From: a virus
DNA: 64,000 nt
Direction: 5' to 3' (one strand)
Virus record (IMG/VR): IMGVR_UViG_3300023184_000090
Span: 10,996 to 74,995 of that record
Positions 5,138-64,000 of the stretch are shown piece after piece. Each line of letters opens with the position of its first letter. The first letter of the stretch is position 1. Under the pieces are notes generated by a model. The model was not told the origin of the DNA. It saw only the letters and a list, made by a program, of their open reading frames with translations, and ran no database searches. The translations under genes were made by a program, and so were the position numbers.

Positions 5138-5303
5138 TTTGTTTCCTTCGCTTCTTAAAAAAGTATTTGACTACTTCATAGTCTACGCCGAATCGTTCGG
5201 CAATGGCCCTCATTGACATGCCCTGCTCACGCAACACCAATGCTCGGCGTGCATCAATCAGTGTGGGTTTGCGCCCACTCCCCGGTCTTGCGCCCCCTTT
5301 CAT
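5085..5303 (-). CDS. small HTH DNA-binding protein
   Basis: GGARPGSGRKP AT-hook-like start plus GMSMRAIAERFGV helix-turn-helix. Confidence 0.65.
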   Translation of the reverse strand: MKGGARPGSGRKPTLIDARRALVLREQGMSMRAIAERFGVDYEVVKYFFKKRRKQNGHDPRSQSEEGSQAAA

Positions 5304-5423
5304 GTGTTCTCCTTGAATTGATAATCTTTAAAGACGGTTCCCCTGCTTGCATCGCCTTTCCAGCATTCGTTTACCCATCCCCGCTTGCCTGACTTGTAAG
5401 TACGCCAATGTCCACGAACCTGA
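5297..5423. repeat. exact direct repeat, copy 1 (copy 2 at 63874-64000)
   Basis: 127 identical bases from ctttcatgtgttctcc to cacgaacctga; offset 58,577. Confidence 0.97.
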
Positions 5424-5965
5424 TGACGGCGTGGTGTTGCGTGGGTTCCGCCTTGATAATCATTTTTTGGTTTAGGCGATTCAATTTCCACTGTATTCCA
5501 GTCAAAACTTAAAGCGGGTTTGCCTTTTGATTGACGCTTTTGATTGATAAATGTGCGCTTTGGTGTGGGGCGATAACCCTGCGATTGATGAGCAAGTTTT
5601 ATCAACACTGCAAGCACCATTCGGTGGACAGGTTTAATATCTTCAAGGGTTATTTCTTTGTCCTTCTGATAAATTCTGAAGCCTTCTCCGGTAGAAACAT
5701 AAGCATATGGAGAAAAGTATTTGCCGCCATGCCACATGGAGCAACCGCCCACAGTTATTGAATCATCGCCCCTTAAAAGCCAAAGAGCAAAGTCTTTTCC
5801 TTGCGTATCCAAGCCAACAATTCCCGTTCTTTTTGAAGGTAAATTCATCAAAAAATCTGCGGGAACTTTTGTGTCAAGTACAGGCTCCATTTGCCCAACA
5901 TCAAACCACAAAGCAGTTTCTGGCTCAGGCGCAAACTTTACGGCCTTGCAAACCAATGGAGTCAT
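5300..5965 (-). CDS. conserved phage hypothetical protein
   Basis: 221-aa ORF with basic C-terminal GGTHATPRRHQVRGHWR motif; its 3' end recurs at the window end. Confidence 0.8.
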   Translation of the reverse strand: MTPLVCKAVKFAPEPETALWFDVGQMEPVLDTKVPADFLMNLPSKRTGIVGLDTQGKDFALWLLRGDDSITVGGCSMWHGGKYFSPYAYVSTGEGFRIYQKDKEITLEDIKPVHRMVLAVLIKLAHQSQGYRPTPKRTFINQKRQSKGKPALSFDWNTVEIESPKPKNDYQGGTHATPRRHQVRGHWRTYKSGKRGWVNECWKGDASRGTVFKDYQFKENT

Positions 5966-6090
5966 TGCGGATTCTCCTCGTCATCAAAAGACATTTCAGG
6001 TGGATGTGAAATGTCATCATGGACAATAACGCCAAACTCATTTGCCAGCAAAAATCTGCCGCACACTATGCAGTAATAACCTTCTGTCAT
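5962..6090 (-). CDS. small CxxC protein
   Basis: MTEGYYCIVCGRFL..., ATGA overlaps at both ends, RBS GGAG. Confidence 0.55.
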   Translation of the reverse strand: MTEGYYCIVCGRFLLANEFGVIVHDDISHPPEMSFDDEENPQ

Positions 6091-6551
6091 GTGTTCTTCT
6101 CCTCGGCGTAGCCGTTCTTTTGCTTGAGTTTGGCTTCAATGGCTCTAACGCATTTCAATCCAGTTGGTGTCCAAGGGTATTCACCTGCACATTCGTGCAT
6201 CTCCTCATCCGTCAGCCCTACCCATGTGCGCTGTGGTGGGTGGGTGTAGAGAGGTTCAACCCAACCTTTATGGTTTGGGTTTCTTTTATTCCAAACATCT
6301 GCGTAAGTTTCGTTGTCCTCATAAGAACAATAAAAATACAAACCCTCACCATCAAATGTGCGCCACGCCACAGGCTCTTGCTCTGCATAAGCCTCCTTGT
6401 ACAAGCCCAGCCGTTCATTTTCATTGTGCAAGGCTTGAAGTGCTTTCTCTTGTGCCAATCGTGCGTTGAGTCTCGCAACCTCACCTTCCAAACCCCTTAT
6501 GACAATCTTGAATGCATTGGCTTCGCAGTGTTTTTCACAAGTGTCAGTCAT
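6087..6551 (-). CDS. mosaic early hypothetical protein
   Basis: QEPVAW...PLYTHPPQRTWVGLTDEE...AIEAKLK..KNT, a typical phage early-gene mosaic. Confidence 0.7.
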   Translation of the reverse strand: MTDTCEKHCEANAFKIVIRGLEGEVARLNARLAQEKALQALHNENERLGLYKEAYAEQEPVAWRTFDGEGLYFYCSYEDNETYADVWNKRNPNHKGWVEPLYTHPPQRTWVGLTDEEMHECAGEYPWTPTGLKCVRAIEAKLKQKNGYAEEKNT

Positions 6552-6700
6552 GCTTGTTCTCCTCTGGTTGTTGTGGAAAAGTTGATGTAACAAATCGCAC
6601 AGCACTGTCTCCGTCTTGAATCAGCACCGTTACTGTTGCCGCTTGCAAATTTTTGCCATAAACCAACCTCAAGCTTTCCCAAAGTTTTTGCATTTCATCT

Positions 6701-6913
6701 TTAGTCATGCTTCACCACCCATACAGCAGTGCCGCCAGTAAATTCAAATTCATCAAATTTCAGCCTGATGTACTGTTGTCCCGGCACACCAGCAGATTGG
6801 ACATAGCCTTGAATTCCAAAGCTCTTTAGCTCTGTCACCACTACCATGCAAGCACCGAACGTTTCCTTGGTTGGTGTAACCTGCACAATGTCTCCAACTT
6901 TTAAGTCTTTCAT
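6701..6913 (-). CDS. small SH3/KOW-like hypothetical protein
   Basis: LKVGDIVQV start; coupled to neighbours. Confidence 0.6.
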   Translation of the reverse strand: MKDLKVGDIVQVTPTKETFGACMVVVTELKSFGIQGYVQSAGVPGQQYIRLKFDEFEFTGGTAVWVVKHD

Positions 6914-7122
6914 GCTTGTTCCATTTCTCTAATAGCGGCGGCGCATTGGTCACGCACATCAATTTCCTGTTGCATTGGTAAGCTCTCGCACAGCTTTGCA
7001 CACGCCTCACGCTCCTCGGCGGCTATAGTTCCCAACTGACCACGCAAATTGGCAACCGTAAGCAACAGGGAATCCCTTGCCATTTTCATTCGGTCAAACT
7101 CAATTTCTTCATCTTGTGTCAT
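6910..7122 (-). CDS. hypothetical protein
   Basis: EREACAKLCE...CAAAIR motif common in phage early genes. Confidence 0.65.
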   Translation of the reverse strand: MTQDEEIEFDRMKMARDSLLLTVANLRGQLGTIAAEEREACAKLCESLPMQQEIDVRDQCAAAIREMEQA

Positions 7123-7382
7123 CGCTTCATTCCTCTCACAAATGACGCAAAGCTTTGCACTGTGTCCCGACCGAACGGCATGGTGAACTTGGTCTCCAAC
7201 TCCACAGCCACTTCTTCCAAAGCAAAATTGCGCTTGCGGTTGTTCGCATTATCAATGTCGGCAAAGTCCTGCTCAATTCGTTGTATTTGCCTCTTACGGT
7301 TTAGTGAACGCACGATTTCTTGTCGTACTGATGACATGCGCTCGATGTCATTAAACGCTTCATCTTCTGGGTTATCTATCAT
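7119..7382 (-). CDS. hypothetical protein
   Basis: MIDNPEDEAF...FGRDTVQSFASFVRGMK; ATGA overlap with next gene. Confidence 0.6.
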   Translation of the reverse strand: MIDNPEDEAFNDIERMSSVRQEIVRSLNRKRQIQRIEQDFADIDNANNRKRNFALEEVAVELETKFTMPFGRDTVQSFASFVRGMKR

Positions 7383-7643
7383 TGCGATCTCTTTCATCCA
7401 TCCAAAACCACAGTTCAGCCAATGCATACAGTATCAATCCAGCTATTGCTATGCATAGACTACCAAGCAAGAAGATTGTGACCACAGTTTCAGTCATCCT
7501 TCTTCTCCTTCTTATCCTCCAACAAGTCAATCAACGTGCTCAAAGGTACATTGTTGCCGAACTTTTTTTGAATAACTGCAATCTCATGCATAATGAAATT
7601 ACAGCCTGATTCAAAGCCTTTGATGTACTCATTCATCTCAGTC

Positions 7644-7931
7644 TCAGGATACATGCTTCACCCCTAGGTACCGCTTGGCTTTTTCTGTTGGCACACACAT
7701 CCGGCTACGCTCGTCTTCACGGTTCACTTGTGTCTTAACATAGCCATGCTCTTTAAGCCAGGCCAGGTTGTTGTGAACAGTCGAGTGCGATGCAATGCCT
7801 TCGCCTACTGCAATGTGTGCAAGGTCCATGACAGTCATGATCTTCTTATCAATGATCATGTCAAGCATTACCTCGGACACCGGCGTCATGCCAGCCTGTT
7901 TTCGCTTTTTGAACCAGTAAAGTGGTCGCAT
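7644..7931 (-). CDS. MarR-like winged-helix protein
   Basis: STVHNNLAWLKEHGYV....EDERSR...TEKA wHTH pattern. Confidence 0.6.
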   Translation of the reverse strand: MRPLYWFKKRKQAGMTPVSEVMLDMIIDKKIMTVMDLAHIAVGEGIASHSTVHNNLAWLKEHGYVKTQVNREDERSRMCVPTEKAKRYLGVKHVS

Positions 7932-8158
7932 TATTTTCTTCCTTGTGCCAAAATTGTGCAGATTGCCGTTGCTGCATGACCTTCTACACCATCTAGCGCA
8001 CAAGCCACAACCATGGGATCAGCGCCATTGGACACGGCTTTCTCCCATTTATCGCGCTTGCCATGGGCATTGATGGTGAGAGACACTATCAGCGCTATGA
8101 AGAACGCCAACACCATGCCCCAAATGCAAACCCAAAATTTTTGGACACTATCCATCAT
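7931..8158 (-). CDS. small membrane protein
   Basis: N-terminal hydrophobic helix FWVCIWGMVLAFFIALIVSLTI. Confidence 0.6.
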   Translation of the reverse strand: MMDSVQKFWVCIWGMVLAFFIALIVSLTINAHGKRDKWEKAVSNGADPMVVACALDGVEGHAATAICTILAQGRK

Positions 8159-8445
8159 GCTACTCCTTCTTCATACGTAATTGCTTGCAATTTGCTGATA
8201 CGGTCCGCGATAGAGATCATTGTCTTTTGGTACTCGGCCATGAGTTTCTTCTTTTCTTTTTCCAAGGCGGCAATTTGCTTGAGGCGAGGATCGAAGCTGT
8301 CAGGGATCTCTATTTCTATCTCTTGACTGCAAACGTGAACGCGATAATCGGTATCATCCATCTTGTGTGTGTACACAACGAATTCGGGCTTTTCTTCCCA
8401 TTGATACTGTGACTGATGAATGTGAATGGTGTGTTTAGTTTTCAT
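8155..8445 (-). CDS. hypothetical protein
   Basis: RBS GGAGA; MKTKHTIH... with C-terminal coiled coil. Confidence 0.65.
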   Translation of the reverse strand: MKTKHTIHIHQSQYQWEEKPEFVVYTHKMDDTDYRVHVCSQEIEIEIPDSFDPRLKQIAALEKEKKKLMAEYQKTMISIADRISKLQAITYEEGVA

Positions 8446-8577
8446 TAGGTTCTCCAAATTAAAATGTCGAGGGCTACAACAATGATACCAACAAGGCAAA
8501 CTATGCGAGCAACCTTGTCGGCAACGGTTAAATTGGCAACATGTATTTCTACACTGATGCCGTCGTCTACTACTACC

Positions 8578-8835
8578 TTACGCACTGAAGTCTTCCAACA
8601 TGGCGCGGTGGTGCTTTTTCAACTGGACCAGGATGTCGTGCTGGTCTTTTACTGACAACTCATAAGTTACATCGGTACCTGCAGGCTCGTCTTCAAAGGC
8701 CTCGGTTGTGTAAGCAAACCAGTCATACGTTTCACCAAGGCCAACGGATGCATCTTCATCGAAGTAGTCGTACTCCACCAGCAAATAGCCATAGTCAAGT
8801 GAGCTAACTTCTGTTTTGTAGGTCATGTTCTTCAT
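8578..8835 (-). CDS. acidic hypothetical protein
   Basis: MKNMTYKTE..., D/E-rich. Confidence 0.55.
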   Translation of the reverse strand: MKNMTYKTEVSSLDYGYLLVEYDYFDEDASVGLGETYDWFAYTTEAFEDEPAGTDVTYELSVKDQHDILVQLKKHHRAMLEDFSA

Positions 8836-8846
8836 GGTGGTTCCGA

Positions 8847-9206
8847 TCAGAGTGAAGTTACGCGGCATGCAAGGGAAGCGGATGTCTTGGTGTGCTTGTC
8901 AATAATGTCTTTTTGGAGATCAATGCCAGCAGCTGCAAGTGCCTCTTTAAACTTAACCAATGCATCGAGTTCTTGGAGCACCGCCTCGTAGTTAACAAAG
9001 GGGCGTTGTGAAAGGCTGACAGAAGCTTTGTAGAACTGGCCGTTGTGCTTGCCTTCGCCTTGGTTCTTGATTTCATCCTTCAGGACTTCGACTTGGTTGT
9101 CCAAGGCTGTCTTATCTGCCAACATGAAACCGAGGCGGTCTACATTGGACAGAGTGCTAATGTTTACTTGTGTTTTCAAACCGGTTTGTGTGTTTAGTAC
9201 TTCCAT
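8847..9206 (-). CDS. hypothetical protein, first gene of the leftward early operon
   Basis: RBS AAGGA upstream of ATG 9206, immediately downstream of the promoter motif. Confidence 0.7.
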   Translation of the reverse strand: MEVLNTQTGLKTQVNISTLSNVDRLGFMLADKTALDNQVEVLKDEIKNQGEGKHNGQFYKASVSLSQRPFVNYEAVLQELDALVKFKEALAAAGIDLQKDIIDKHTKTSASLACRVTSL

Positions 9207-9233
9207 TTTCAGATCCTTTGAGTTTAGTAGTTA

Positions 9234-9283
9234 GTGTGCCTAAGCACAGTTGCACTATACCATGTTTTAGCATTAGTACAATA
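9234..9283 (-). promoter_or_regulatory. leftward promoter with extended -10 TGGTATAGT
   Basis: Minus strand reads TTGTACT-AATGCTAAAACATGG-TATAGT-GCAACTG; the core AAAACATGGTATAGTGCAACTG is identical to the promoter at 56245-56266. Confidence 0.75.
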
Positions 9284-23515: not shown

Positions 23516-24493
23516 ATGACGCCAACAGATAAGTTAGAAATGCAGGTCGCTGAGGAATCAGATGGCTCTGCAGTGGTAAAACTACCCCCGAGTGAGGTAT
23601 CTGAACCTATAGAACCACAAGAAAAGGTTCAAAACGAGGCCTCAGATGACCTAGATGATGATGACAGAAGTGGTTCTGATGATGACGATCCTGAACGAGA
23701 AGCCATACGGGCGGCTCGCAGAGAGGAAAGAAAGCTTAAAAAGCAATTGCATCGTGAGAAAGCACGCGAGTCGAACCATCTGATCACGGCTCTTCGTAAG
23801 CAGAACTCGGAACTTGCCGGTCGAGTGGCGGCTTTGGAAACAAAGACCACCGGTGCTGAGCTGGCAAGGATCGACAAAGCCATCGACGATGCAGGTACTC
23901 GAGTCGAGTATGCAAAGATGAAGATGCAAGAGGCTGTTAACTCACGTCAAGGCGACGAGTTGACAAAGGCTCAACAGCTCTGGTATGACAACCAGCGGCA
24001 GCTTGAGTCACTACAGGCGCTGAAGGCAAATGCCAATAAGGTCATGTCTCAGCCGAAACAGAACAACATCAAGGTTCCGGATCCTAGCGTTCAGGCAAAT
24101 GCATCTGAATGGATGAAACGGAACAACTGGTATGACCCACATCTTAAAGATGCGGATTCAAAAGTTGCGCAATCTATTGACCAGGTTCTGACCGAAGAAG
24201 GTTATGACCCCACATCCTCTGATTATTGGGAAGAACTGGACGACAGGTTGCAAAAATATTTGCCACACAGATATAAAGCGGGGTATAGTACCGATACACG
24301 TAACTCTAGACCAAGGTCTGTTGTGGGAAGTTCAGGGCGCGAATCGGTGAGTACACCACGTCAAGGTGAGTTTAGACTCACTCCTGACCGCGTTAACGCT
24401 ATTAAAGAAGCTGGCATGTGGGATGACGTAAAGCTTCGCAACAAGATGGCTCAGCGATTTGCTGAATATGATAAACAACAGAAACGAGGCTAA
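23516..24493 (+). CDS. putative capsid scaffolding protein
   Basis: acidic N-terminus and long coiled coil, upstream of the MCP. Confidence 0.6.
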   Translation: MTPTDKLEMQVAEESDGSAVVKLPPSEVSEPIEPQEKVQNEASDDLDDDDRSGSDDDDPEREAIRAARREERKLKKQLHREKARESNHLITALRKQNSELAGRVAALETKTTGAELARIDKAIDDAGTRVEYAKMKMQEAVNSRQGDELTKAQQLWYDNQRQLESLQALKANANKVMSQPKQNNIKVPDPSVQANASEWMKRNNWYDPHLKDADSKVAQSIDQVLTEEGYDPTSSDYWEELDDRLQKYLPHRYKAGYSTDTRNSRPRSVVGSSGRESVSTPRQGEFRLTPDRVNAIKEAGMWDDVKLRNKMAQRFAEYDKQQKRG

Positions 24494-24494
24494 C

Positions 24495-25037
24495 ATGGAC
24501 GACCGAATTAAAAAGAACACACGCGTAGACAGAAGCAATCGTTCGCAAGACGATTCTTCACGCGCAGCGCCTGAAGATGCAAACTTTGTATCTTCCGAGG
24601 AACGTCGTAGGATGTTCCGCTCGGAGTGGCTTCAAGAAGCTCTTCCGACCCCGCCCGAAATTTCCGGGTATCACTTATGCTGGTTATCAACGACAAATCA
24701 GTATGACCCTATTCACAAGCGTATGCGAATGGGCTATGAGCCCGTGAAAGCCGATGAATTACCAGGCTTTGAGCATTTGAAAGTGAAAGCAGGAGAGCAT
24801 GTTGGTTTCGTAGCTTGCAATGAGATGGTGTTGTATAAGTTGCCTAACGCAATTTATCAAGACTTGATGATGGAACTTCACTATCATGCGCCTCAAGAGG
24901 AGCAAGAGAAGATCAAGATTCAGCAAGAACAACTGCTAAGCCAACGTGACAGCAATGGGAAACCGTTGGTTACGATCGAAGGTGACGGCATGTACTTTGA
25001 TGCCCAAAAACAACGTCCTGTCCCTGTCTTCGAATGA
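24495..25037 (+). CDS. conserved head-module protein
   Basis: LPTPP..SGYHLCWLS...RMRMGYEPV; position in head cluster. Confidence 0.7.
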   Translation: MDDRIKKNTRVDRSNRSQDDSSRAAPEDANFVSSEERRRMFRSEWLQEALPTPPEISGYHLCWLSTTNQYDPIHKRMRMGYEPVKADELPGFEHLKVKAGEHVGFVACNEMVLYKLPNAIYQDLMMELHYHAPQEEQEKIKIQQEQLLSQRDSNGKPLVTIEGDGMYFDAQKQRPVPVFE

Positions 25038-25074
25038 TGACAAGCAGGCTTTTATTAATTGAAAGGATACTCTA

Positions 25075-25689
25075 ATGAGTGCAACTTCAGCATCGTTTGG
25101 TTTGCGCCCTGCATTCCATCCTTCGGGATTGGATCGTGCACAGGCGCTCGCCGGCGGTATTGTTAGCGGCTTGGCTGCTGACTTACTGAAAGGCTCCCCT
25201 ATCCGATATAACAGCACTGCAGGTACTTCTGTAGCCGCTGGTACTATCGCACAAGCCGCCGCTTCTGGCGCTTGGACGGGTGCTTTCGCCGGCTGTGAAT
25301 GGACTGACACCACTGGTCGTCGTCGTGTTAGCAACTACTGGCCTTCTGGTACTACCTACCAGACCGGTTCGTGTGTTGCGTATTTCTATAACGATCCCAA
25401 TATCGTTTACGAAATTCAAACCGATGCAACCATGGCTCAGACCGCGCTGGGTGGTGAATACAACTTTAGCGCTAACACCGGCTTTACTGTTACTTCGGGT
25501 TCTAACACCACTGGCTTGTCTGCGACGGCTCTTGGCGTTTCAACCGCCGTTGCTAACGGTTCACAAGGCGCAATGCGCGTGGTTGATCTTGCCGCTTATC
25601 CCGGCAATGCGTGGGGCGATCCTTATGTGATCGTTCGTGTTGTTAACGCTCAGTCTCAGTACTTCGGTTCTGTGACCGCCATTGTTTAA
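25075..25689 (+). CDS. putative capsid decoration protein
   Basis: FGLRP...GAFAGCEW...DPNIVYEIQ; immediately before the MCP; highly expressed-type codon usage. Confidence 0.65.
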   Translation: MSATSASFGLRPAFHPSGLDRAQALAGGIVSGLAADLLKGSPIRYNSTAGTSVAAGTIAQAAASGAWTGAFAGCEWTDTTGRRRVSNYWPSGTTYQTGSCVAYFYNDPNIVYEIQTDATMAQTALGGEYNFSANTGFTVTSGSNTTGLSATALGVSTAVANGSQGAMRVVDLAAYPGNAWGDPYVIVRVVNAQSQYFGSVTAIV

Positions 25690-25702
25690 GGGGGACTAAA
25701 AA

Positions 25703-26617
25703 ATGGCCGCACCAATGCGCAGTACAGACTTTAGAAGTATCGTTGAGCCTATTCTCAATGAATGCTTCGATGGAGTCTATGACCAACGTGCCGATGAGTG
25801 GTCCACGGTTTTCCGTGAACAACAAGGCATTCCACGTAACTACCATGAAGAGCCCGTCCTGTACGGATTCGGCGCTGCACCTCAGTTGCCTGACGGCCAA
25901 CCCGTCACGTATCAACAGGGTGGCGTTCTCTTCCTGAAGCGCTATGTGTACAACGTGTATGGCTTGGCCTTCGCGTTGACCAAAGTGCTTGTGGAAGACG
26001 GTGATCACATCCGTATCGGTCAAGTGTATGCAAAACACCTGGCACAGTCTTTGGTGGAAACCAAAGAAACCCTGTGCGCTAACGTGTTGAACACTGCATT
26101 CACTTCAACCGCTATCGGTGGTGACGGCGTGTCCTTGAGCAACTCGGCTCACCCAATTGTTAGCGGTACCTTCAGCAACTTGCTGAACACCTCTGCTAAC
26201 TTGAGCCAGACCTCACTGGAACAGATGCTGATTCAGGTTCGCCAAGCCGTTGACAACAACGGTAAGAAGATCCGTCTCCAGCCTCTGAAACTGGTGGTTG
26301 CCCCTGGTAACGTGTTCCAAGCTGAAGTGTTGCTGAAGAGCGTATTGCGTACCGGTACCGCTAACAACGACATCAACCCGATCAAGTCGATTGGTTTGAT
26401 GCCCGAAGGCGCATCGGTTCTCTCTCGTTTGACCAGCGCTACTGCTTGGTGGGTCCAAACTGATGCACCTGAAGGCATGAAGCTGATGATGCGTCGTGGT
26501 TTGGAGAAGACCATGGAAGGTGACTTTGAAACCGACTCCATGCGTTACAAAGCCACCGAGCGTTACGATGTCGGTTATACCGATCCTCGTGCAATGTACG
26601 GCACGCCTGGCGTGTAA
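25703..26617 (+). CDS. major capsid protein (Mu gpT-like, HK97 fold)
   Basis: GFGAAP, GGDGVSL...HP, LVVAP, TSATAWW, DFETDSMRYKATERY...DPR..YG. Confidence 0.9.
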   Translation: MAAPMRSTDFRSIVEPILNECFDGVYDQRADEWSTVFREQQGIPRNYHEEPVLYGFGAAPQLPDGQPVTYQQGGVLFLKRYVYNVYGLAFALTKVLVEDGDHIRIGQVYAKHLAQSLVETKETLCANVLNTAFTSTAIGGDGVSLSNSAHPIVSGTFSNLLNTSANLSQTSLEQMLIQVRQAVDNNGKKIRLQPLKLVVAPGNVFQAEVLLKSVLRTGTANNDINPIKSIGLMPEGASVLSRLTSATAWWVQTDAPEGMKLMMRRGLEKTMEGDFETDSMRYKATERYDVGYTDPRAMYGTPGV

Positions 26618-26623
26618 GTAGAT

Positions 26624-26653
26624 GGGGCTGGTTTAAACACCAGCCCCTTTTTT
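26624..26653 (+). terminator. rho-independent terminator after MCP
   Basis: GGGGCTGGT-ttaaac-ACCAGCCCC followed by a T-tract. Confidence 0.9.
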
Positions 26654-26690
26654 AGTTTTTATTTGTCAAGCTTTTCAAGGAGAAGACAAA

Positions 26691-27668
26691 ATGCCTCAAT
26701 TTTCCGATGATCTTTTCTTGGGTGGTTCGCAAACCTTTATGGGTTATGCAAAGACTCAAAACGTTGCTGTTGTTACAGCATCACAAGCAACTACTGTACT
26801 GACAGTTACCGCACTGCTTAACGGTGTGCCACTTCAAGTTGGCATGATGATTGGCGGTTCTGGTGTGACGGCTGGTACGTATATCACTTCTTTCGGTACC
26901 GGCACTGGCGGCACAGGTACTTATAACGTGAACAACTCGGTTACTGTGTCTTCCACTACAATCGTAGCTGGTGTTGAAGACAACTTGCCTGATCCGTCAC
27001 TGATGCCATTGGGTGTTGGCCCCTTGGGTCGTCTTTACATATGGGATACGGTTCCGGTGGTTTTGAACGGTGCGAACATTTGTGCATCGCAAACTCCTGC
27101 AACCGCCGGCGCACTGACCTTGCTGACAACCAGCACGCTAGGAGGTCGCTACGTTCAACGTGCTGATAGCACTAACGTTGTTCAGTTGGACGTGCCTCGT
27201 GCAGTTTCGATCTTCTTGACCGCAGGCGGTACTGCTCGTACCTACACCGTGGCTGGTTTCGACATCTACGGCACTGCAATGTCGGAGAACATCCTTACTG
27301 TTGCTAATGCCACTACGTCAGGCAAGAAGGCATTCTTCCAAATTGCCTCGGTGACCGGATTGGTCGGCGGATCAACCACTGCTGTAACGGTTGGCACAAC
27401 CGATATTCTAGGTATTCCGATTCGTATCACTGACCTTGGCTACATTCAGCACATCGGGTACAACAACACTCTGGCAGACGCTGCAGGTACTCCTCTTGTT
27501 GCTGATCAAGCCACTGCAACCACCACCACTGGCGATGTTCGTGGTACGTACCTTCCGGCTTCTGCCACGGATGGCATTAAGCGTCTGGTTATGAGCATTG
27601 CGGTTCCTGCCATTGCATGCGGCCCTAATGCCACCCGTCTGGGCGCATTGGGTGTCACTCAAGCTTAA
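26691..27668 (+). CDS. virion structural protein
   Basis: Thr/Gly-rich beta protein; RBS AAGGAG. Confidence 0.65.
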
Positions 27669-63161: not shown

Positions 63162-63394
63162 TTCCATAAGTGTTGCAGTGATTTAGAGTCGTAGGCTTTT
63201 TGAAATTCTTTTGGTTCAGGTTTGTTGGTTCTCTCCTTGTATGGTTTTTGCGGAATGGTGCCTGTGAACTGTACTTCAAGGGACTTAAAATTGTAGTAAC
63301 ACAGGTTGCATGTCCTGCGTCGATACACTTTGTCTTCCCATTTAGTTGTTTCTATCACCGACGTTTTTGTGCCTTCACACTTGGGGCACTTCAT
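63158..63394 (-). CDS. NrdR-like Zn-ribbon protein
   Basis: MKCPKC....SVIET.....RRRTC..C...F.SLE resembles the NrdR N-terminal DNA-binding ribbon; no ATP cone. Confidence 0.7.
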   Translation of the reverse strand: MKCPKCEGTKTSVIETTKWEDKVYRRRTCNLCYYNFKSLEVQFTGTIPQKPYKERTNKPEPKEFQKAYDSKSLQHLWK

Positions 63395-63552
63395 TTGGCC
63401 TCCATGCATTTGTGCTCATCAGCAAGATGCTTAGACAGGAAGATAAGTTTGCACTTTGTGCATGTCCACAACTGGCCTTCCTTCACCACAACGTAGCGAT
63501 TACTGTCATCACCACGTAACTTTCCAAAGAATGTTCTAATCTTTTCGATCAT
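63391..63552 (-). CDS. small Zn-finger protein
   Basis: WTCTKCKLIFLSKHLADEHKC; ATGA-coupled on both sides. Confidence 0.55.
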   Translation of the reverse strand: MIEKIRTFFGKLRGDDSNRYVVVKEGQLWTCTKCKLIFLSKHLADEHKCMEAK

Positions 63553-63731
63553 GTGTTCTTCCTCTTAATCAATTTTGTGACTTCATCCACAGTAAGTCCG
63601 AGCGCTTCTAGATCTGCTGGTCGGACAATGAAATACTTTGGTATTGCGGTAACCCTGTCGCCAGTCTCATCCATGTGTTTGCGGATTTTTATGAGCATGT
63701 CCTCTAAGCTGGCCTCCGTCAGTTCACTCAT
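63549..63731 (-). CDS. 60-aa protein homologous to a segment of the major capsid protein
   Basis: LTEASLEDMLIKIRKHMDETGDRVTAIPKYFIVRP aligns without gaps to MCP LSQTSLEQMLIQVRQAVDNNGKKIRLQPLKLVVAP. Confidence 0.7.
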   Translation of the reverse strand: MSELTEASLEDMLIKIRKHMDETGDRVTAIPKYFIVRPADLEALGLTVDEVTKLIKRKNT

Positions 63732-63880
63732 GCCACACCCCTCATCTCCCAGCCTGCAATGAAGTAATTCCAACGCCCTTGCATAGCAGGGTTGGTGTAC
63801 TTGTCGCCAGTCATGTGCAAATCATCCTCTGTGTAGCCCTTGGAGGCCATCAGTGCATGGAATACTTGTCGTGCTTTCAT
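63728..63880 (-). CDS. small hypothetical protein
   Basis: MKARQVFHALM...RWNYFIAGWEMRGVA; ATGA-coupled. Confidence 0.6.
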   Translation of the reverse strand: MKARQVFHALMASKGYTEDDLHMTGDKYTNPAMQGRWNYFIAGWEMRGVA

Positions 63881-64000
63881 GTGTTCTCCTTGAATTGATA
63901 ATCTTTAAAGACGGTTCCCCTGCTTGCATCGCCTTTCCAGCATTCGTTTACCCATCCCCGCTTGCCTGACTTGTAAGTACGCCAATGTCCACGAACCTGA
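63874..64000. repeat. exact direct repeat, copy 2 (3' end of the gene at 5300-5965)
   Basis: identical to 5297-5423 up to the window edge. Confidence 0.97.

Follow-up and report, generated by a model that had tools for sequence, protein, structure and literature searches.

The Locus and Its Genes

The window analysed here is a stretch of 64,000 nucleotides comprising bases 10996–74995 of the 74,995-bp IMG/VR virus record IMGVR_UViG_3300023184_000090. Near its end lies a small gene coding for a protein of 60 residues (the mini-protein, Table 1), which is very probably an exapted piece of the same phage's major capsid protein (MCP), as judged by several kinds of sequence comparison. The length of 60 residues is counted from an ATG; an extended form of 74 residues starting at a TTG is possible, but the relatives consist of 60–61 residues. 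A Shine-Dalgarno-like sequence, conserved among relatives, precedes the start codon. A preliminary description of this locus had called the gene intact and coupled by ATGA overlaps to the genes on both sides, and both overlaps are real. Of 16 related loci, 15 have an ATGA or GTGA junction to the following gene, with the identity of the downstream gene varying from locus to locus, and the 50-residue gene upstream of the mini-protein gene is found in the same place in locus L006, other genes taking its position in most relatives. The downstream gene, with its Cys/His motif, yields only weak zinc-finger matches in Pfam.

The mini-protein gene sits in a non-structural block. It lies, as previously described, among small genes on the strand opposite to that of the MCP gene and far from the head module, at a distance of ~37 kb. 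Downstream of it, on the same strand, are genes for an NrdR-like zinc-ribbon protein, a MazG-like pyrophosphohydrolase, and a 'DNA binding protein' of phrog_624, and the DNA polymerase gene is also located on this strand. That the gene is an early one is suggested by these non-structural neighbours only. Scans for promoters and terminators around the gene and upstream of it gave counts at or below the shuffled expectation, so that no promoter signal rises above chance. Searches of Pfam with the mini-protein of the window, and of NCBIfam and PADLOC with this protein and its neighbours, gave no match, and the mini-protein is thus named by no family library.

Table 1. Positions of the mini-protein gene, its parts, the MCP gene, and adjoining features in the window.
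Feature	Position	Strand	Basis
Mini-protein gene, 60 residues, very probably MCP-derived	63549..63731	-	List of open reading frames (ORFs), homologous clusters, dN/dS
N-terminal MCP-like module, residues 2-44	63600..63728	-	BLASTP, hhalign columns 3-44, AlphaFold2 secondary structure
C-terminal part, residues 45-60 (GLTVDEVTKLIKRKNT), not MCP-like, predicted helix 48-58	63552..63599	-	Alignments, dN/dS
MCP gene, 304 residues, HK97-type	25703..26617	+	Pfam, PHROG
MCP residues 165-206 (helix-strand-start of helix), homologous to the mini-protein	26195..26320	+	BLASTP, Smith-Waterman, hhalign, profile search
Upstream gene, 50 residues, stop overlapping the mini-protein start (ATGA)	63728..63880	-	ORF list, junction comparison
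Downstream gene, 53 residues, Cys/His zinc-finger-like motif, start overlapping the mini-protein stop (ATGA)	63391..63552	-	
Exact copy of window 5297-5423	63874..64000	.	127/127 identical

Homology to the Major Capsid Protein

The MCP of this phage is matched in Pfam by Phage_capsid_4 (E 3e-12, residues 6–299) and by Mu-like_gpT (E 2.5e-6, residues 164–223), as well as by the major head protein families of PHROG, and it has more than 7562 related clusters. The gapless alignment first reported for this locus, in which residues 4–38 of the mini-protein are paired with MCP residues 167–201 (window 26201–26305) and 13 of the 35 are identical, was reproduced. In BLASTP the mini-protein aligns with its own MCP over residues 2–41 and 165–204, respectively (33.9 bits, pairwise E 6e-8). 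The Smith-Waterman score of the pair is 72, compared to 25.9 ± 4.1 for 5000 shuffles, the largest of which reached 52; the corresponding Gumbel p of ~3e-7 holds after correction for all ~5000 protein pairs of such a genome. When an alignment of 32 members of the small family was compared by hhalign with an alignment of 10 MCPs, columns 3–44 of the former matched columns 165–206 of the latter with a probability of 96.4 % and an E value of 1.1e-9. The likeness is thus significant in both the shuffle and the profile test that had been proposed as a check.

Profile searches in both directions lead to the same pair of proteins. When 1.84 billion representative proteins were searched with it, the hidden Markov model (HMM) of the small family retrieved its own family and two partial MCPs (library-wide E values of 8.4e-6 and 3.7e-4), both of which belong to the MCP family of this phage. 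In 12 other phage genomes (Caulobacter phage GB2A, the complete metagenomic phage MW202545, and ten IMG/VR relatives) the sole match of this profile was the MCP gene, with E values of 1e-10 to 4e-9. In turn, a six-frame search of the phage's own record with the MCP profile matched the MCP and the mini-protein ORF (E 3.4e-7) and nothing else, and in each of the ten carrier records tested the small ORF was retrieved with the MCP of the window. Mu-like_gpT is also the Pfam family matched by the largest number of small-family members (5 of 32, best E 0.004).

Some members of the family are closer to the MCP than the copy in the window. The G006 copy is identical to the MCP at 20–21 of 40 residues, P0298 shares with it eight consecutive residues, SLEQMLIQ, and P0303 shares the stretch DGKKI. 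In a comparison of the family consensus sequences, 17 of 43 positions agree and seven more are hydrophobic in both. A chance or convergent likeness between two amphipathic helix-turn-strand motifs that do not share an ancestor could be suggested by the weak matches of the family profile to a NifU-like pattern, LTEE.VE.VL.EIRP (E 0.18), and to leucine-rich repeats; in view of the shuffle and hhalign statistics, the reciprocal profile matches in every genome tested, and the intermediates with at least 50 % identity, such an explanation is extremely improbable. The description of the gene as a free-standing, intact derivative of an MCP segment is accordingly borne out by the BLASTP, shuffle, hhalign, and HMM results, as well as by the substitution rates given below.

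Anatomy of the Mini-Protein

The AlphaFold2 model calculated with the family alignment has a middling mean predicted local distance difference test score (pLDDT) of 66. Its predicted elements are a helix (residues 6–23), an extended stretch (24–37), and two further helices (38–44 and 48–58), with the MCP-like part running, in the model, from the first helix through the turn and the extended stretch into the first turns of the next helix. Of the 11 residues of the segment that are invariant among the MCPs, eight are identical in the mini-protein (S171, L172, E173, I177, D184, G187, P194, and P201), and most of these are conserved in the small family too. We read them as a putative local fold code, in which they would represent the helix N-cap, a hydrophobic stripe, an Asp...Gly helix stop, and two prolines bracketing the strand.

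Nothing in the MCP alignment corresponds to the last 16 residues, GLTVDEVTK(L/M)IK.., which lie outside the hhalign match and are the best-conserved part of the family. The protein as a whole is approximately neutral, with 11 acidic and 10 basic residues. Fold searches started from the low-confidence model gave a best Z of 2.3 in VIA-align (48,161 chains) and a best E of 1.3 in Foldseek against BFVD, and the ESM Atlas returned no usable match. The small-family profile, compared with solved structures, matched only a designed repeat protein, a leucine-rich repeat protein, and NifU-like protein 2, none of them meaningful.

The predicted order of a strand-like stretch, helix 38–44, a turn, and helix 48–58 would also suit a small DNA-binding regulator, with residues 33–58 resembling a strand-helix-turn-helix of the excisionase/MerR type or a ribbon-helix-helix, and with the N-terminal helix serving for dimerisation. 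The pattern LGLT..E(V/I)..(M/L)I is, in our own reading, similar to that of a helix-turn-helix, and single members weakly match winged helix-turn-helix, AbiEi, and Mga families (E 0.02–0.13). However, no helix-turn-helix or ribbon-helix-helix family is matched significantly, the scattered single-member E values of 0.02–0.15 being found among the 32 members but none for the window protein. The charge is nearly neutral, the would-be recognition helix (VDEV) is acidic, and with neighbours that vary there is no conserved adjoining operator or target gene. A regulatory role of this kind is of low probability.

Position of the Segment in the Capsid Fold

The segment could not be placed in three dimensions, since the AlphaFold2 model of the MCP, calculated with an alignment of 18 sequences that are mostly ~90 % identical, has a mean pLDDT of 32. 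This poor model contains a long helix (103–132), a helix comprising residues 169–180, short strands, and a helix comprising residues 201–213. In the HK97 fold, the two helices of the A-domain are the only ones that follow the spine helix. The predicted order of helices fits a spine helix followed by the two helices of the A-domain, and the copied unit is thus most likely the two-helix core of that domain, a mapping that we infer from the predicted elements. The A-domain consists of two helices around a four-stranded sheet, the helices making the main subunit contacts within a capsomer or facet (PMC8346489).

Comparison with solved structures gave no match for the MCP profile, and for the profile of the segment it gave only gpT of phage Mu (9jod, E 0.64). 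The only stretch that this MCP shares with Mu gpT (L147:4139–5053, gene T) is the helix-strand-helix motif, which is found at positions 166–218 of 304 here and at positions 232–284 of 305, near the C terminus, in Mu gpT. Judged by eye, strand-like segments that follow the motif in this MCP seem to precede it in Mu gpT, and the order of segments may differ between the two MCP families. Mu gpT is described as having a canonical HK97 fold (PMC11915804).

Family, Selection, and Distribution

The small family comprises at least 271 clusters at 90 % identity, from freshwater metagenomes, with nearly all members 60–61 residues long and 73–93 % identical to the copy in the window. The length and pattern are unchanged even in distant members (32–57 % identity). 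A larger parent protein was considered and rejected, the longer matches being only mis-called long starts or fusions with neighbours. Among 15 coding sequences (105 pairs) the median nonsynonymous (dN) and synonymous (dS) divergences are 0.17 and 0.70, with a median dN/dS of 0.21. The ratio is 0.23–0.25 for the MCP-like codons 2–40 and 0.12–0.13 for the C-terminal codons 41–57. The search for stand-alone homologs and the substitution rates proposed as checks therefore show a real gene under purifying selection.

The stretch is present in lake and freshwater metagenomes from many studies. Short contigs were also found in two metatranscriptome runs, one of 193 nucleotides (X22) on the MazG gene and nearly identical to it, the other of 54 nucleotides (X23) covering the 5' end in a small-gene relative, although a contig from an RNA library is no proof of transcription. 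Among prokaryote genomes, one of 185,579 species has the small gene, located on a 4.3-kb contig of a betaproteobacterial metagenome-assembled genome.

The small gene is mobile and optional; the freshwater phages to which its carriers belong form a very abundant group, a minority of which have the gene. It is missing in all 11 complete relatives sampled, namely in nine IMG/VR genomes that are at least 98 % complete and have MCPs 88–92 % identical, as well as in two GenBank genomes, those of Caulobacter phage GB2A (MCP 77 % identical) and MW202545 (87 %). The four carriers of the gene in a tree of 15 MCPs are scattered, one of them grouping as the sister of a non-carrier with a branch length of 0.005–0.01, and the MCP segment itself is virtually identical in carriers and non-carriers. 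The genes flanking the small gene vary by locus. An essential role in assembly is excluded, because the gene is absent from most relatives, and the pattern of an accessory, scattered gene with variable neighbours is that usual for genes of host interaction or conflict rather than of assembly.

The small protein of record G003 shares 72 % identity with the copy in the window, whereas the MCP of this record is only 39 % identical to that of the window. This small protein is closer to the MCP of the main clade (score 88) than to its own (57), which argues that a main-clade MCP was the source of the fragment and that the fragment has passed between genomes since then. All five carrier records in which an MCP is visible have one of this family; record G011, with a divergent member of the small family, ends inside the virion module before any MCP.

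Variants of the C Terminus and Recombination of Small Genes

The MCP-like module is also found with other C-terminal parts. In locus L037 (2748–3002, plus strand), a tandem paralogue of 84 residues consists of the module (SELTEANFEAMLIKLRKHLDETGEKAALTPNSMIFKP) followed by a Cys/His zinc-ribbon-like C terminus in place of the helical one, and is located directly upstream of a member of the family (L037:3001–3186). In P0298, P0304, P0305, and P0263, with 76–83 residues, the module is followed by an Arg-rich tail (R.P..R..RG.RGRK.A). These variants are rare and known only from metagenome contigs of 1–3 kb, and scans of viral and metagenome sequences found no locus that would provide their genomic context. 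The possibility that the tails are out-of-frame readings of the canonical gene was ruled out by intervening stop codons. The retention of the module as a unit with several different C termini suggests that the module itself is functional.

Such an arrangement could be expected of a portable capsid-targeting tag, in which the N-terminal module would dock on assembling capsomers and bring a variable C-terminal cargo, whether a helical hairpin, a zinc ribbon, or an Arg-rich tail, into or onto the procapsid. In its favour, a single module is combined with at least three kinds of C terminus, and the A-domain's helices make up capsomer interfaces (PMC8346489). Nevertheless, the gene is located in the replication and presumed early block and not among late genes, and the Arg-tail variants are rare and confined to short contigs. 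This role is distinctly unlikely.

Two further sequences, P0251 and P0252, are natural deletion fusions, in which the N termini of other genes are joined in frame to the C-terminal half of the mini-protein through a short shared stretch, GD(K/R)V. The N termini come either from the upstream 50-residue gene (MKAR.VFHALM.., compare 63728–63880) or from a relative of the 70-residue ORF 7122..6910 (window 6910–7122, minus strand). These fusions show that illegitimate recombination among the small genes is frequent. A recurrent gene junction, AAGGAGAAGAACACATGA, is found in the window at positions 63549–63566 and 6087–6104 (minus strand), that is, in two copies compared to 0.06 expected, and also upstream of the small gene in loci L007, L012, L015, L018, and L020. 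It encodes a C-terminal ..KEKNT, a Shine-Dalgarno sequence, and an overlapping stop and start; KEKNT or EKNN is the end of many unrelated small ORFs in this phage group. The junction may be a linker for the exchange of small genes.

Genome Ends and Head Module

The 127-bp exact terminal repeat indicates that the genome is most likely a circle of 58,577 bp (window 5297–63873), and the relatives that share the same MCP have genomes of 52–60 kb. With such a circular unit, the operon upstream of the mini-protein gene continues at positions 5300–9250 (minus strand), and the ORF 63877–63999, open at its 5' end, is the end of the 221-residue ORF 5965..5300. The first 5.3 kb of the window, as well as the 10,995 bases that precede it in the record, may belong to another phage or result from an assembly join.

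The head module (window 24459–27668, plus strand) includes, in this order, genes for proteins of 192 and 204 residues, the 304-residue MCP, and a Gly/Thr/Ala-rich protein of 325 residues. The same order, with similar gene sizes, is found in Caulobacter phage GB2A and in MW202545. The three neighbours of the MCP have no match in NCBIfam.

Possible Functions of the Mini-Protein

We favour the possibility that the mini-protein is a soluble mimic of the MCP that would compete for a protein partner, and we assign to it a probability of roughly 0.35, its mechanism being wholly inferred. The helix-turn-strand unit, together with the first turns of the next helix, was very probably copied from an MCP of this clade into a hypervariable block of small non-structural genes, where the copy would have acquired a start codon, placed two to three residues ahead of the module, as well as a new C-terminal helix that is highly conserved. 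As the mini-protein has the local structural code of this element of the MCP without the remainder of the HK97 fold, it would be incapable of building a shell. It would instead resemble unassembled MCP in soluble form and compete for the protein site that normally receives this element, a candidate being the face that the A-domain of the MCP offers to a neighbouring subunit, or else a protein of the host or of a defence system by which free MCP is read. With its C-terminal helix the mini-protein would gain solubility or a further contact. In favour of the proposal are the homology and the eight retained invariant residues, the selection on the gene, its accessory and scattered distribution, and the use of the module with several C termini, as well as, from the literature, the subunit contacts made by the A-domain helices (PMC8346489) and the triggering of several defence systems by free MCP.

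Several observations weigh against this proposal. The confidence of the model of the mini-protein is middling; the assignment of the copied unit to the core of the A-domain is an indirect one, and the shared motif occupies a different position in Mu gpT. Apart from the residues of the putative fold code, most polar positions differ, Gln or Asn of the MCP being replaced by Glu, Lys, Asp, or His. Such replacements are as expected when a packed element turns into a soluble protein, but the exposed surface is not an obvious copy of that of the MCP, and the shared residues may reflect only the retention of the fold. Since these residues appear to be largely local fold determinants, a strict version of the proposal, in which the surface itself is mimicked, is weakened. 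With its ~40 residues, the segment is unable to reproduce the extended interfaces that have been described for sensors of the MCP. In addition, no column in the alignment of 15 MCPs separates carriers from non-carriers, and there is no co-variation between the small protein and its own MCP.

The last two points bear also on the suggestion, made in the preliminary description, of a dominant-negative peptide acting against co-infecting relatives. It has lost ground, because the MCPs of carriers and non-carriers are indistinguishable and the copy in G003 does not track its own MCP; with an MCP segment virtually identical in both groups, a capsid poison would hit the phage that makes it.

The alternative of a fragment exapted for an unrelated role falls only slightly short of the soluble mimic in probability. 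The segment would then have provided raw material, a foldable helix-strand scaffold for a task unconnected with capsids, such as the binding of a host protein during takeover or a function as a small regulator, and the MCP-like residues would persist only as a local fold code. This explanation agrees with the predominance of fold determinants among the shared positions and with the change of most surface positions, as well as with the location of the strongest conservation in the non-MCP C terminus (dN/dS 0.12–0.13). The lack of co-variation with the MCP, the constant recombination of small ORFs in the region (fusions P0251 and P0252), and the failure of every family library to name the protein are in line with it too. 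It accounts less well for six polar consensus residues (S8, E10, R17, D21, K26, and K33) that are also common to the MCP, for the preservation of the N-terminal module with several different C termini, and for the presence of an MCP of this family in all five carrier records in which one is visible.

A particular form of mimicry is that of an immune decoy, a truncated copy of an MCP element that would be read by a host sensor or by a complex of sensor, EF-Tu, and MCP; produced ahead of the late burst of MCP synthesis, it would occupy the sensor without activating it. A capsid mimic occupying a sensor had also been suggested in the preliminary description. Free MCP triggers defence by CapRel (PMC9712102), and both Avs7 and Dsr1 (bioRxiv 10.64898/2026.01.04.697583), as well as a TIR system (bioRxiv 10.1101/2024.07.29.605636), are reported to sense MCP. 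For the mini-protein we consider such a role rather unlikely.

If the mini-protein is indeed a soluble mimic, phages would put parts of their shell protein to new use in soluble form, a simple route to accessory genes, and the protein might represent a new class of counter-defence factors or assembly modulators aimed at bacterial systems that sense capsids. As a decoy, it would belong to a wider, undescribed class of counter-defence proteins built from fragments of the phage's own virion proteins. Even with an unrelated function, the gene would be a clean and well-dated case of gene birth, in which a structural sub-domain of 40 residues became an independent, selected gene with intermediates preserved in metagenomes. 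The case is testable, since there are cultured Caulobacter phages, namely GB2A, RW, RLK, and KcrB, that have an MCP 77 % identical and do not have the small gene.

Comparison with Known Systems

No description of a free-standing gene for an MCP fragment in phages was found in the literature searches. Residues 2–44 of the mini-protein, homologous to MCP residues 165–206, relate it to the HK97-fold MCPs (PF25209/PF10124; phage Mu gpT, PDB 9JOD). Unlike these, it consists of only 60 residues, with a single sub-domain unit and a new C-terminal helix, and its gene is optional and located outside the head module on the other strand. With the homology covering only this segment of the MCP, it is a derivative and not a member of these families.

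The Gol region of gp23 of phage T4 is a short stretch within an MCP that by itself has biological activity as a ligand, in the exclusion that involves Lit and EF-Tu. By analogy, the mini-protein might also be a short MCP segment acting as a ligand, although Gol lies within the MCP gene, triggers defence, and belongs to another MCP family and to another region of the fold. The working principle needed for a decoy would be analogous to that of DSAD1, a phage inhibitor of the tail-tube sensor DSR2 that counteracts a defence sensing a structural virion protein (PMC11087589). In contrast to what is proposed for the mini-protein, this source does not present DSAD1 as a derivative of its trigger.

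The Family 4 'A-domain encapsulins' (PF08967, DUF1884; PDB 2PK8) resemble the mini-protein in being stand-alone derivatives of the HK97-fold A-domain, with a function that is speculative (PMC8346489). They consist of ~100 residues and comprise the whole A-domain, whereas the mini-protein would correspond to ~42 residues of it, if the mapping described above is correct. Family 4 is found in hyperthermophilic archaea and in two genera of Bacteroidetes, with archaeal operons that include enzymes, whereas the mini-protein comes from a lake-water phage and has no enzyme partner. PF08967 was not matched at E values up to 1 by the mini-protein or by any of the 32 family members. A whole A-domain is excluded by the length of the mini-protein alone, and its low-confidence model has one extended stretch and no sheet. 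Thus, the mini-protein is not a Family 4 encapsulin, but Family 4 is the closest described precedent of a stand-alone piece of the HK97 fold.

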